The notes beneath the pieces were generated by a model. That model worked only from the letters and a program-made list of their open reading frames with translations. It ran no database searches and was not told where the DNA came from. Of a stretch of 64,000 nt of DNA, positions 56,193 to 59,525 are shown in pieces. The stretch lies in the NCBI RefSeq assembly GCF_000027125.1, contig NC_017626.1; one strand, given 5' to 3'. The stretch's first letter is position 1, and every line of letters begins with the position of its first letter. Both the position numbers and the translations under genes were made by a program. The stretch is from Escherichia coli 042 (lineage in GTDB: Bacteria > Pseudomonadota > Gammaproteobacteria > Enterobacterales > Enterobacteriaceae).

Positions 56193-57122
56193 ATGTCCAA
56201 AAAGATTGCCGTGATTGGCGAATGCATGATTGAGCTTTCCGAGAAAGGCGCGGACGTTAAGCGCGGTTTCGGCGGCGATACCCTGAACACCTCCGTCTAT
56301 ATCGCCCGTCAGGTCGATCCTGCGGCATTAACCGTTCATTACGTAACGGCGCTGGGAACGGACAGTTTTAGCCAGCAAATGCTGGACGCCTGGCACGGCG
56401 AGAACGTTGATACTTCCCTGACCCAACGGATGGAAAACCGTCTTCCGGGCCTTTACTACATTGAAACCGACAGCACCGGCGAACGTACGTTCTACTACTG
56501 GCGTAACGAAGCCGCCGCCAAATTCTGGCTGGAGAGCGAGCAGTCTGCGGCGATTTGCGAAGAGCTGGCGAATTTCGATTATCTCTACCTGAGCGGGATT
56601 AGCCTGGCGATCTTAAGCCCGACCAGCCGCGAGAAACTGCTTTCTTTGTTGCGCGAATGCCGCGCCAACGGCGGAAAAGTAATTTTCGACAATAACTATC
56701 GTCCGCGCCTGTGGGCCAGCAAAGAAGAGACACAGCAGGTGTACCAGCAAATGCTGGAATGCACGGATATCGCCTTCCTGACGCTGGACGACGAAGACGC
56801 GCTATGGGGTCAACAGCCGGTGGAAGACGTCATTGCGCGCACCCATAACGCGGGCGTGAAAGAAGTGGTGGTGAAACGCGGGGCGGATTCTTGCCTGGTG
56901 TCCATTGCTGGCGAAGGGTTAGTGGATGTTCCGGCGGTGAAACTGCCGAAAGAAAAAGTGATCGATACCACCGCAGCTGGCGACTCTTTCAGTGCCGGTT
57001 ATCTGGCGGTACGTTTGACGGGCGGCAGTGCGGAAAACGCGGCGAAACGCGGGCACCTGACCGCAAGTACCGTTATTCAGTATCGCGGCGCGATTATCCC
57101 GCGTGAGGCAATGCCGGAATAA
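56193..57122 (+). CDS. kdgK: 2-dehydro-3-deoxygluconokinase KdgK (309 aa)
   Basis: pfkB-family sugar kinase with C-terminal TAAGDSFSAGY motif; start set at MSKKIAVIGECMIEL. Confidence 0.9.
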   Translation: MSKKIAVIGECMIELSEKGADVKRGFGGDTLNTSVYIARQVDPAALTVHYVTALGTDSFSQQMLDAWHGENVDTSLTQRMENRLPGLYYIETDSTGERTFYYWRNEAAAKFWLESEQSAAICEELANFDYLYLSGISLAILSPTSREKLLSLLRECRANGGKVIFDNNYRPRLWASKEETQQVYQQMLECTDIAFLTLDDEDALWGQQPVEDVIARTHNAGVKEVVVKRGADSCLVSIAGEGLVDVPAVKLPKEKVIDTTAAGDSFSAGYLAVRLTGGSAENAAKRGHLTASTVIQYRGAIIPREAMPE

Positions 57123-57678
57123 TGGTTTTTGACGGAGAACGGGTAGATATTCGTTCTCCGTTAATCGCCTTGCAGGGGTGAACCGAACTATGCTGATAAT
57201 TTGAAGTAAACTGCTGACGCATATCATTCAAACTACGCGTAAATTTAAGCGGGTTCTCACCTTTAATTTCGACCGTGACGAAGACATTCCCATTGTTGTT
57301 AAAGAAGCCAAAATAATAGTCATGTTGATGACGACGATTGGTTTTAAATTGACGAAATGATAAATAGCAGCGGTTATCGTAGGTAATTAAAAAATCATTT
57401 TCTCCGTATTCGTTTATCATCTTATTTTTCAGGCTACCATCGAAGAGCACTGCATACTTATCTTTGTCAGCAAATAATTCGGCATCAGTTTCTCGGTTGA
57501 TCGTGTTGACGCTGATACCGAATTCTATTTTTACCTTGTCTTTATCGATATTATTTCTTGTGCTGACATACATATTATTGGCATCCCAGAGTAAGAGAAA
57601 GTTTTTGTTGCAGGAATAAAGACCTGTTAAGCAAAGAATGACTGTTAGCAAGAATAGTATGCGTTTTTTGTTACGCAT
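57094..57678 (-). CDS. Hypothetical secreted or lipoprotein-like protein (194 aa), islet gene 5
   Basis: N-terminal signal peptide MRNKKRILFLLTVILCLTGLYSC with RBS caggag; Asn/Lys/Asp-rich and AT-rich; the 3' end reads through the kdgK terminator and 29 bp into kdgK. Confidence 0.55.
   Translation of the reverse strand: MRNKKRILFLLTVILCLTGLYSCNKNFLLLWDANNMYVSTRNNIDKDKVKIEFGISVNTINRETDAELFADKDKYAVLFDGSLKNKMINEYGENDFLITYDNRCYLSFRQFKTNRRHQHDYYFGFFNNNGNVFVTVEIKGENPLKFTRSLNDMRQQFTSNYQHSSVHPCKAINGERISTRSPSKTIIPALPHAG
57132..57161 (+). terminator. Hairpin after kdgK (candidate terminator)
   Basis: acggagaacg ggtagatatt cgttctccgt, 10 nt after the kdgK stop. Confidence 0.5.
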
Positions 57679-57739
57679 TTATACTCCTGAAAATGCGTTG
57701 AGGTCGCAAATATAATTAAATAGTCTGACATAAATAAAA

Positions 57740-58060
57740 TTAATTCCCTATCAATAATACATCTGCGACTTTTCTTGGTCCTTCGTAGATCTCAAATGCC
57801 TCGTACTTAGTCATCCATTGTTCAGGGGCGGTATCGAAAAGGAACTGAACGCACCCCATTGAAACGATACGTCCATCGGTTACATTAGGTTTTTCCAATT
57901 CAAAAACAACGCTCCATGCATTATTTTGCCAGTCAGTTTTCTCCTCTGGAAACCTGGAGACGGGATAATATCTACCGATAGGAGGTGCGCTCCTTCTGCC
58001 ACCTTCATTTTCTGTAAGCCAAACAACCTTTACACGATACATATGTTTCCATTCATTCAT
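57740..58060 (-). CDS. Hypothetical protein resembling EF-Tu domain III (106 aa), islet gene 4
   Basis: VVWLTENEGGRRSAPPIGRYYP and C-terminal FEIYEGPRKVADVLL align with EF-Tu domain III ([36 protein letters not shown]); starts 3 nt after the gene 3 stop. Confidence 0.6.
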   Translation of the reverse strand: MNEWKHMYRVKVVWLTENEGGRRSAPPIGRYYPVSRFPEEKTDWQNNAWSVVFELEKPNVTDGRIVSMGCVQFLFDTAPEQWMTKYEAFEIYEGPRKVADVLLIGN

Positions 58061-58063
58061 TAA

Positions 58064-58543
58064 TTAAATTAAGTGTGAATTATATAATATTGCCACCCCA
58101 TGCGATCTTTCCCATTTTAGTCCATCAACTAATAATGATAGAAAAGAATACTGGAAGCTTATATTTTTAATCACTTCTATTTTTTCATCATCTAATGACA
58201 AGATTACCCACCCCCCGTAATTTTTGCTAACCAGGTTGTTAATAAATTTAATTATAGGATTGGTTGAAATATCCTTTCCTTTATTCACAGCCATTTCCAG
58301 GTCATCGACTAAAGAACCATTGAAGTTGTAAACATGATATTCATTAAAGTCTATGTGCTCATCTAAAGGTGGGCCATAAGTAATCGGTAGATTGCATCTC
58401 TGCAAAAGATGATGATTACACCAGGCGTATACCGGAGGGTCGCGATGAAAGGTTTCCCCACCCCAGTGAACCATAACCTCTTGTAGATCTAGTTCCTCTG
58501 GAGCGAATCGTGTAGGGAGTAAAATATCCAAGTGAAAATCCAT
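58064..58543 (-). CDS. Hypothetical protein (159 aa), islet gene 3
   Basis: AT-rich ORF with no motif I recognise; translationally coupled to gene 4. Confidence 0.55.
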   Translation of the reverse strand: MDFHLDILLPTRFAPEELDLQEVMVHWGGETFHRDPPVYAWCNHHLLQRCNLPITYGPPLDEHIDFNEYHVYNFNGSLVDDLEMAVNKGKDISTNPIIKFINNLVSKNYGGWVILSLDDEKIEVIKNISFQYSFLSLLVDGLKWERSHGVAILYNSHLI

Positions 58544-58642
58544 AGCCTATCCTAAATTTGGCACCCATAACATAAACTGTGTAAGAATCAACGACTGCCC
58601 CCCCAAAAATGGGAAAATTTACTTATTATGCAAAGTTACTTA

Positions 58643-58897
58643 TTAAGAAGCCCATTCCTCATTTTTTGGCAAATAGCCCTTTCGCCAACAGGTCAGAATC
58701 TTAAAACTCGCTCGCAAATAAAATTTATTAGCCGAATCGTTTTTAACCATTCTGACTAATGTCATCTCACCCGTTCTTTTATCTATCACGAACTCGCCGT
58801 AATCAGATCTACAATAGTCAGAAGATGTAGGTCCAAATTCATATTTTACTACTTTATCAGTTTCTTCAATTTTCAATATTTCTATATGATAGGCCAT
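58643..58897 (-). CDS. Hypothetical small protein (84 aa), islet gene 2
   Basis: Start codon overlaps the stop of gene 1 by one nucleotide (TAATG); no recognised motif. Confidence 0.5.
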   Translation of the reverse strand: MAYHIEILKIEETDKVVKYEFGPTSSDYCRSDYGEFVIDKRTGEMTLVRMVKNDSANKFYLRASFKILTCWRKGYLPKNEEWAS

Positions 58898-59322
58898 TAT
58901 TTAACACCATCTATTGCCTGGCATCGTATACAGCTAAAACCAGTAGCTAAAATCTCAACATAACTATCATAACCTGCTATAATATAATGTTTTAACTTTA
59001 ACCGTTTTTTAGGGTCATATAATCTCTCTTTTTCTTCAAGCGGTACAGAATTCATTACTTGATATATACCGGAGTCCAGATTTTCACCATCAACCTTCTT
59101 AATAACAATATTGTTATAGTTGGCTTCATGAAAATTGACGGTAGCACACTTAACTTCAGCAACTGTAGTGAAGACCAGTTCAATTTGAACATAATCTTTC
59201 TCTGTTGATATTAACTCCAGAGCATCTACTTTAATGTTGACGCCATCAGACTCTGTATATGTTAAAGATAAATAAGTTGTGGAAATCCTGAATCCAATCG
59301 ATTGTGATTTTAACACAAGCAT
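58897..59322 (-). CDS. Hypothetical protein (141 aa), islet gene 1
   Basis: Start at the second ATG (MLVLKSQSIG), which has AAGGAG 7 nt upstream; C-terminal CIRC (CxxC); AT-rich. Confidence 0.55.
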   Translation of the reverse strand: MLVLKSQSIGFRISTTYLSLTYTESDGVNIKVDALELISTEKDYVQIELVFTTVAEVKCATVNFHEANYNNIVIKKVDGENLDSGIYQVMNSVPLEEKERLYDPKKRLKLKHYIIAGYDSYVEILATGFSCIRCQAIDGVK

Positions 59323-59525
59323 AAACTCACTCCTTCCAGTAGGCACAGGTATAATTTATTCAGCTAATAAATAATTAAACCCACTCTACGGTAAGTTTAT
59401 TTTAATAATGAATGGTTATCTGCGCGCTACCGCCGTGCCCGGAAAAATATCTGCGGTTATATCACGGTAACTAATTTATTACCGTTAATCCCGGCAGCGC
59501 AGAAGAAACGCTGCCGGGTTATTTA

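Follow-up and report, generated by a model that had tools for sequence, protein, structure and literature searches.

Two coupled genes in a kdgK/yhjJ islet of Escherichia coli 042 as probable unrelated orphan Rhs immunity genes

What is the role of two small genes that share a single nucleotide at the head of a low-GC islet in the chromosome of Escherichia coli 042? The genes, here termed g1 (141 aa) and g2 (84 aa), lie between kdgK and yhjJ within a 64,000-nucleotide (64-kb) stretch of contig NC_017626.1 (RefSeq assembly GCF_000027125.1), and this whole stretch is referred to below as the window. A first-pass annotation, made from the letters of the window and its open reading frames (ORFs), had proposed a toxin-antitoxin (TA) or effector-immunity pair. 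The analysis reported here favors another arrangement. With a probability of roughly 0.8, g1 and g2 are orphan immunity genes against Rhs toxins that have no relationship to each other and were acquired independently, standing at the start of a five-gene putative immunity islet. Most likely they belong to a known kind of gene, orphan Rhs immunity genes, in families that are unannotated in Pfam, NCBIfam, and PADLOC.

Structure and distribution of the g1-g2 pair

The structural description given in the first-pass annotation was borne out when the reverse complement was read. The stop codon of g1 and the start codon of g2 overlap by one base in the string TAATG, g1 is preceded by a strong ribosome-binding site (AAGGAG), and the pair is indeed at the head of the islet, as the first of five same-strand genes spanning positions 57094 to 59322 (Table 1). 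The ATG start of g1 was backed by the family alignment, and in identical genomes the Prokaryotic Genome Annotation Pipeline (PGAP) annotates exactly these two coding sequences (CDS), each as "hypothetical protein." Homologs of g1 and of g2 were each found in several genera. Both genes are under purifying selection, as the ratio of nonsynonymous to synonymous substitution rates (dN/dS) was 0.09 to 0.29 in most comparisons, orphan copies included; between divergent orphan variants at the same site, it was 0.24 for g1 (window against locus L002) and 0.22 for g2 (window against locus L046). AlphaFold2 returned confident models of both proteins, with a predicted local distance difference test score (pLDDT) of 92 and a predicted template modeling score (pTM) of 0.86 for g1 and a pLDDT of 85.5 for g2. 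Because of the homologs in multiple genera, the mostly low dN/dS values, and the confident models, g1 and g2 are regarded as real genes and not chance ORFs.

Two features that had drawn attention to the pair carry less information than was first supposed. A stop/start overlap of 1 nt is a common operon junction and is no marker of gene class or of partnership. The C-terminal CxxC of g1, although present, is confined to the closest enteric sequences, being found only in the window g1 and in the homologs P0002 and P0003 and missing from P0006, P0009, and P0010 and from the 57-sequence alignment. Judged from these alignments, it is neither a family feature nor a functional signature.

The g1-g2 segment was identified in 172 of 5426 complete E. 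coli genomes (168 of the 172 at ≥99% identity), with both ORFs intact in 171 of the carriers. The entire islet was present in 169 of the 5426.

Table 1. Coordinates, in window positions, of the genes and other features described in the text
Feature	Position	Strand	Description
g1	58897..59322	-	141 aa; ATG at 59322, TAA at 58897-58899; putative T1 immunity gene
g2	58643..58897	-	84 aa; ATG at 58895-58897, stop at 58643; putative T2 immunity gene
TAATG stop/start overlap of g1 and g2	58895..58899	-	Shared base 58897; reverse complement read directly
Shine-Dalgarno sequence AAGGAG	59330..59335	-	7 nt 5' of the g1 ATG
C131-I-R-C134 (CxxC) of g1	58921..58932	-	Read from the sequence; not family-conserved
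g3	58064..58543	-	155/159 aa; third islet gene; ORF and PGAP CDS; kept in all islet variants
g4	57740..58060	-	100/106 aa; ORF and PGAP CDS; unannotated
g5	57094..57678	-	194-aa predicted lipoprotein; last islet gene; N terminus MRNKKRILFLLTVILCLTGLYSC from translation
Whole low-GC islet	57116..59524	.	Takes the place of the 95-bp kdgK/yhjJ spacer of K-12
GC-rich hairpin (CCCGGCAGCG...CGCTGCCGGG)	59490..59518	-	Directly past the yhjJ stop; islet-specific, supplants the K-12 hairpin

The g1 family and toxin tip T1

A profile search of 1.84 billion representatives identified 84 members of the g1 family, nearly all of them stand-alone proteins of 125 to 175 aa. Using a 6-sequence alignment, a genome scan located 24 g1 loci outside E. 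coli, from Firmicutes, Bacteroidota, and Proteobacteria. In 11 of these (L022-26, L035, L038-41, and L043, with Lysinibacillus, Aneurinibacillus, Bacillus, Photorhabdus, and Citrobacter represented), one specific Rhs toxin tip, termed T1, or a degraded remnant of it lies no more than 95 nt upstream of the g1 homolog. T1 is approximately 140 aa in length and carries the motifs HFGQNRIAPNF...TLNNRGLAA. Intact examples, found in Lysinibacillus fusiformis, Aneurinibacillus, and Photorhabdus namnaonensis, sit behind a TIGR03696 Rhs core, and those of Firmicutes share 67 to 71% identity with that of Photorhabdus. T1 is interrupted or truncated in L023, L024, L026, L038-41, and L043; where it has decayed, the adjacent immunity ORF is usually still intact. 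Further g1 homologs were located among runs of small genes that follow full Rhs/YD proteins (L024, L036, and L041-43).

The remote homology search that the first-pass annotation had put forward as a check was empty at the level of sequence and, for g1, gave a match at the level of fold. Pfam gave nothing for g1 at an E value of ≤10 and nothing at ≤0.001 for any of 57 family members, and the g1-family profile had no match among PDB sequences. The best fold match of the g1 model was the immunity protein PIM7. In addition, g1 is without the Rhs/DPxGL leader that real toxin tips have. The neighborhoods described above suggest that g1 is a member of an unannotated family and acts as an immunity protein for T1.

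Two metagenomic members of the family are recorded here in their own right. In a 363-kb contig (L013), a g1-family gene lies past a VgrG cluster that includes a Toxin-deaminase protein of 543 aa and a gene of 117 aa, and it is followed by LtrA, DUF1963, and Cas3-like helicase genes, a toxin context other than T1. The 140-aa ORF P0064 is a chimera that begins with the C-terminal half of T1 and ends with the final third of an immunity protein of the g1 family; it seems to be the scar of a deletion or recombination event that crossed a junction of toxin and immunity genes.

The g2 family and toxin tip T2

The slot directly after the stop codon of an Rhs gene is the textbook place of the cognate Rhs immunity gene. 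In Kluyvera intermedia, a 63%-identical homolog of g2 starts 4 nt past the stop of a 1587-aa PAAR-Rhs protein, encoded in turn downstream of VgrG and of a gene with a DcrB domain. A second toxin tip, T2, is formed by the final ~135 residues of this protein and carries the conserved motif LLRHExFESxFEG. As an orphan Rhs tip, T2 was also found directly 5' of g2 homologs in Xenorhabdus griffiniae (two copies), in two draft assemblies of E. coli/Shigella, in the metagenome contigs L007-9, and in Salmonella enterica, where the array also includes an Imm9 gene. The gap between toxin and g2 homolog is 4 to 7 nt in Kluyvera, Xenorhabdus, Salmonella, and the E. coli/Shigella drafts, and in one of the draft tips (L055) the TIGR03696 Rhs_assc_core match ends exactly where T2 starts. 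Both families, g1 and g2, therefore have members directly 3' of a specific Rhs toxin tip in several genomes, the position by which RhsI-type immunity genes are recognized.

In two further metagenome contigs, g2 homologs of 56 to 58% identity belong to long runs of genes on one strand that also include Barstar, Colicin_immun, SUKH/SMI1_KNR4, and Cys_rich_CPCC genes, a classic multi-immunity layout. The g2 family is limited to Enterobacterales and is unannotated. The protein is predicted to fold into a five-stranded sheet with one helix, for which a fold search returned partial GNAT-like matches only, an uninformative result for a protein of 84 aa. A relationship to the immunity protein TriTu (PF24689/7zhm) was considered and rejected, as no sequence similarity was found. 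Searched by sequence and by profile against PDB chains and NCBIfam, both T1 and T2 gave chance-level matches only. On the basis of its placement, g2 is inferred to be an immunity protein for T2.

The T2-immunity modules of Kluyvera, Salmonella, and Xenorhabdus (L016-L019, L052, and L053) have a SymE_toxin-family gene at their distal end, on the opposite strand. In Xenorhabdus griffiniae CP133647 (~3.671 to 3.694 Mb; L016/L017), a ~6.65-kb unit occurs in at least three tandem copies behind a full-length Rhs gene, each unit comprising an orphan Rhs tip with its immunity gene, a SymE-like toxin, a helix-turn-helix regulator, a primase-like protein, and a tyrosine integrase. Two of the units hold a T2/g2-type module. 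The unit resembles a mobile element through which orphan toxin-immunity cassettes become multiplied.

Relationship between g1 and g2

Profile-profile comparison with hhalign found g1 and g2 to be unrelated (probability, 3%), and on this ground the suggestion that they are distant paralogs was rejected. Across all fetched loci, searched with tblastn, the kdgK/yhjJ site of E. coli was the only place with homologs of both genes, so a conserved, co-inherited type II TA pair was likewise rejected. L002, an E. coli/Shigella version of this site, carries a 69%-identical g1 homolog that is joined by TAATG to a 91-aa gene with no similarity to g2. Homologs of g2 without g1 were identified in Kluyvera, Salmonella, Xenorhabdus, and metagenome arrays; in a metagenomic immunity array (L010), an overlap of 1 nt joins two other, unrelated neighbor genes. 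The possibility that g1 is an orphan toxin neutralized by g2 was also examined and rejected, since g1 is similar neither to the T2 tip nor to the 154-aa orphan tips of Xenorhabdus.

Because g1 and g2 are unrelated, are found separately outside the E. coli site, and have their own Rhs toxin tips elsewhere, they do not appear to be partners. The combination is best read as immunity plus immunity, with neither a toxin nor an effector among the two. Of the earlier proposal, the general area of immunity and conflict fits, whereas the idea of two partners, one of them toxic, fails.

Immunity genes in sister islets and arrays

Sister islets are present at the same site in other E. coli lineages, with g1 at 92% and g2 at 90% identity and with the junction TAATGATG; this junction, seen in the variant islet L046, has the same type of stop/start overlap as the TAATG of the window. 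In the sister islets L049, L045, and GF4-3, a TriTu homolog is located directly 3' of g2 (E value of 2.7e-29 to PDB 7zhm_C; PF24689; named "immunity protein TriTu family" by PGAP). Experiments have validated TriTu as the protein that gives immunity to the Rhs toxin TreTu, whose active site it covers (PMC9825190). A homolog of g4 was located in a Lysinibacillus Rhs array (L043, 5113-5400), at a weak 28% identity (tblastn, 1.7e-9; phmmer, 2.5e-8), and this array holds the g4 homolog and a g1 homolog together. Clustering with other immunity genes was thus observed in the sister islets (TriTu), in an Rhs array (the g4 homolog), and in the arrays that contain g2 homologs.

Absence of the cognate toxins

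Neither T1 nor T2 was found in the window by tblastn at an E value of ≤10, which returned scattered matches of ~18 to 19 bits, at chance level and none in or beside the islet. Upstream of g1 and g2, the window contains no Rhs core, toxin tip, or remnant, nor is there an Rhs core elsewhere in its 64 kb, and a cognate Rhs effector-immunity pair in cis, which would have a DPxGL-ended Rhs core and toxin tip upstream, was discarded as a candidate. T2 DNA was undetected in the 5426 complete E. coli genomes, the 172 carriers included; the queries were the T2-immunity modules of Salmonella and E. coli/Shigella, which matched only through their g2 part or the conserved Rhs core.

Proposed role and alternative explanations

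If g1 and g2 are orphan Rhs immunity genes, the two, arranged head to tail and translationally coupled, would be expressed from a compact array of five genes. Rivals would inject Rhs effectors by contact-dependent secretion (a type VI secretion system [T6SS] in Gram-negative bacteria), and g1 would bind the C-terminal toxin domain T1 and g2 the C-terminal toxin domain T2. By analogy with TreTu-TriTu and PT7-PIM7, each immunity protein would block its toxin 1:1, with the active site covered. Because the carrier has no T1 or T2 adjoining the pair, any present-day protective benefit would lie in resistance to the weapons of other strains and not in self-protection.

A number of observations weigh against this reading. 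The putative functions of g1 and g2 are drawn wholly from gene neighborhood, and by sequence the two families match no curated immunity family. The identity of g1 to the T1-adjacent copies is just 39 to 49%, and g1 may no longer neutralize any extant T1. Approximately nine Paenibacillus homologs of g1 are solitary; they stand amid metabolic genes to which they are unrelated, lack any toxin context, and are oriented opposite to their neighbors. In GF4-3, g1 is deleted except for its last ~20 nt, and the copy of g2 is present, frameshifted near its 3' end and unannotated. For the two closest E. coli variants of g1, dN/dS is 0.68, a value calculated from only 22 changes. A promoter scan upstream of g1 detected no sigma-70 consensus promoter. 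Finally, the search for T1 covered the 64-kb window, and the genome-wide search for T2 was made at the DNA level.

Beyond orphan immunity as such, it is possible, and we suggest this tentatively, that the kdgK/yhjJ site is a recombinase-free, actively exchanging acquired interbacterial defense (AID) locus, the window version of which would shield the extraintestinal pathogenic E. coli (ExPEC) lineage of the ST69 type from Rhs toxins made by Salmonella, Kluyvera, and rare E. coli, with the enzymatic activities of T1 and T2 as yet undescribed. At such a locus, cassettes may swap at gene junctions, as in the alternation of g2 with the 91-aa gene at TAATG, the presence or absence of TriTu, and the deletion of g1. 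Were this so, g1 and g2 would serve as handles for finding new toxin domains, T1 and T2.

That the genes are relics, derived from Rhs immunity genes, now useless, and kept by clonal inheritance, is unlikely. The near-invariance of the islet (≥99% identity in 168 of 172 carriers) fits recent clonal spread with little time for decay, and the lack of a consensus promoter, the state of GF4-3, an IS1 within the islet of one strain, the dN/dS of 0.68, and the failure to detect T2 in complete E. coli genomes would all suit this view. Against it stand the intact ORFs in 171 of 172 carriers and the low dN/dS among divergent same-site orphan variants (0.24 and 0.22), together with a strong ribosome-binding site and a coupled junction that are kept across variants. 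T2-armed Rhs genes, moreover, are present in gut relatives (Salmonella and Kluyvera) and in rare E. coli/Shigella.

It is very unlikely that g1 and g2 have a role other than toxin neutralization, as small regulators or stress- or phage-related proteins whose adjacency to Rhs genes reflects shared mobility. The absence of a sequence-level family, the solitary Paenibacillus copies of g1, and the uninformative fold search with g2 are compatible with such a role. Mobility alone is nevertheless hard to accept, because placement exactly in the immunity slot (gap of 4 to 30 nt) recurs across phyla for g1 and in four genera for g2; in addition, decay of the neighboring toxin, where it has occurred, has usually left the immunity ORF intact, and no DNA-binding or enzymatic domain was detected in either protein. 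Hardly credible is a two-gene TA or effector-immunity module in which one product is toxic and the other neutralizes it, as the overlap of 1 nt, the small sizes, the strong ribosome-binding site, and the horizontally acquired islet that suggested it are outweighed by the lack of co-occurrence outside the E. coli site, the unrelated 91-aa partner in L002, the solitary g1 copies of Paenibacillus and g2 homologs without g1, the separate upstream toxin of each family, the absence of a match to any toxin, antitoxin, or defense model, and the leaderless, immunity-like fold of g1.

Comparison with known systems

Read as orphan immunity genes, g1 and g2 find their closest counterparts in the putative T6SS/contact-dependent inhibition immunity islet of Salmonella Typhi (PMC7400221) and the AID clusters of Bacteroidales (bioRxiv 10.1101/471110). 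As in these, a short same-strand run of small genes lies on a lineage-specific, compositionally foreign islet, its homologs occupy immunity slots elsewhere, and the matching toxins are absent nearby, an arrangement read as protection against the weapons of others. Unlike the AID and recombinase-associated AID clusters, the islet of the window is without a recombinase, integrase, or mobile-element gene. It also differs from the Typhi islet and the AID clusters in having just five genes, none in a curated immunity family, and in its location in the housekeeping spacer kdgK/yhjJ, and the protection it would give is presumptive.

The Rhs-main TreTu/TriTu module and the orphan Rhs-CT/RhsI pairs (PMC9825190 and PMC3967940) share with the g1 and g2 families the RhsI position past a DPxGL-delimited tip, and a true TriTu homolog stands beside g2 in sister islets. 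In contrast to those modules, g1 and g2 lie outside any rhs locus, with no Rhs core or tip upstream, and both are unrelated to TriTu in sequence. PIM7, which in Bacillus cereus gives immunity to the LXG/type VII secretion system DNase toxin PT7 (PDB 8owu; Pfam Imm50; bioRxiv 10.1101/2021.10.19.465003), resembles g1 at the level of fold only. No sequence relationship to PIM7/Imm50 is detectable, g1 is 141 aa and PIM7 115 aa, and T1 matches neither PT7 nor another solved structure by sequence. With type II TA operons, g1 and g2 share their small size, overlap, and common orientation on an acquired islet; they differ in lacking conserved pairing, a toxin or antitoxin domain, and a DNA-binding domain and in that each family has a separate secreted-toxin partner elsewhere.

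If this assignment is correct, a widespread uropathogenic E. coli lineage would possess a small chromosomal kit for defense against Rhs toxins for which it has no genes of its own, and the islet would provide an Enterobacteriaceae example for the orphan-immunity/AID concept. Two immunity families and two Rhs tips (T1 and T2) absent from Pfam, NCBIfam, and PADLOC would be named, and thousands of "hypothetical protein" entries could be better annotated. For genome scans, the case is a caution that a tight overlap of two small islet genes is in itself no proof of a toxin-antidote pair.

Remaining islet genes and alternative contents of the site

When all five islet proteins were compared with PADLOC, NCBIfam, PHROGs, and Pfam, no usable match was obtained. 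Their database names are "hypothetical" or "uncharacterized," the exception being g5, a "Lipoprotein" in UniRef, and a literature search on the protein accessions found no paper. For g4, a relationship to EF-Tu domain 3 was considered and dropped, as phmmer against the PDB finds no EF-Tu. The 3' end of g5 overlaps that of the convergent kdgK by 29 nt (57094-57122).

The kdgK/yhjJ site is a hotspot whose contents differ among variants in several ways. In L045-L047, two extra genes lie on the opposite strand beside kdgK, encoding a DUF3142 protein (402 aa) and a tetratricopeptide repeat (TPR) protein of 664 to 680 aa. In place of the DUF3142 and TPR genes, L002 carries insertion sequence-related fragments and a DUF6708 gene.

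Islet boundaries and lineage

The gene order on the E. coli chromosome is yhjG, pdeH, kdgK, the five small minus-strand genes, yhjJ, dctA, and pdeK. Homology to K-12 ends at position 57115, within the final codons of kdgK, and restarts at 59525, at the yhjJ stop, giving an islet of 2.4 kb. With the boundary inside these last codons, kdgK ends in ...AMPE* here and in ...AMPA* in K-12. The GC content of the five genes is 0.30 to 0.43, against 0.50 to 0.58 in the flanks. No recombinase, integrase, transposase, or other mobile-element gene was found within the islet of the window.

The ~200 nt separating the yhjJ stop from g1 (59340-59525) are islet-specific. The 203 nt upstream of g1 contain the yhjJ stop, hairpins, and an AT-rich spacer and nothing else. 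The GC-rich hairpin listed in Table 1 was not called by a simple terminator scan because it has no T run; a second inverted repeat is located at ~59455-59485. The promoter and terminator scan yielded fewer matches than it did in shuffled controls.

The islet is lineage-specific, and the lineage includes UMN026, the source of the AlphaFold DB entry identical to g1, and strains labeled sequence type 69 (ST69), which are among the islet carriers. In E. coli LP-26-E1-261 (NZ_CM144251.1, 1984526-1987823), an IS1A is inserted in an otherwise identical islet. A 2.8-kb contig labeled "MAG: Collinsella sp." (L020; JAIJJM010000440.1) is 100% identical to the E. coli islet across all five genes and the end of kdgK and is probably a contig of E. 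coli that was binned in error into an actinobacterial metagenome-assembled genome.

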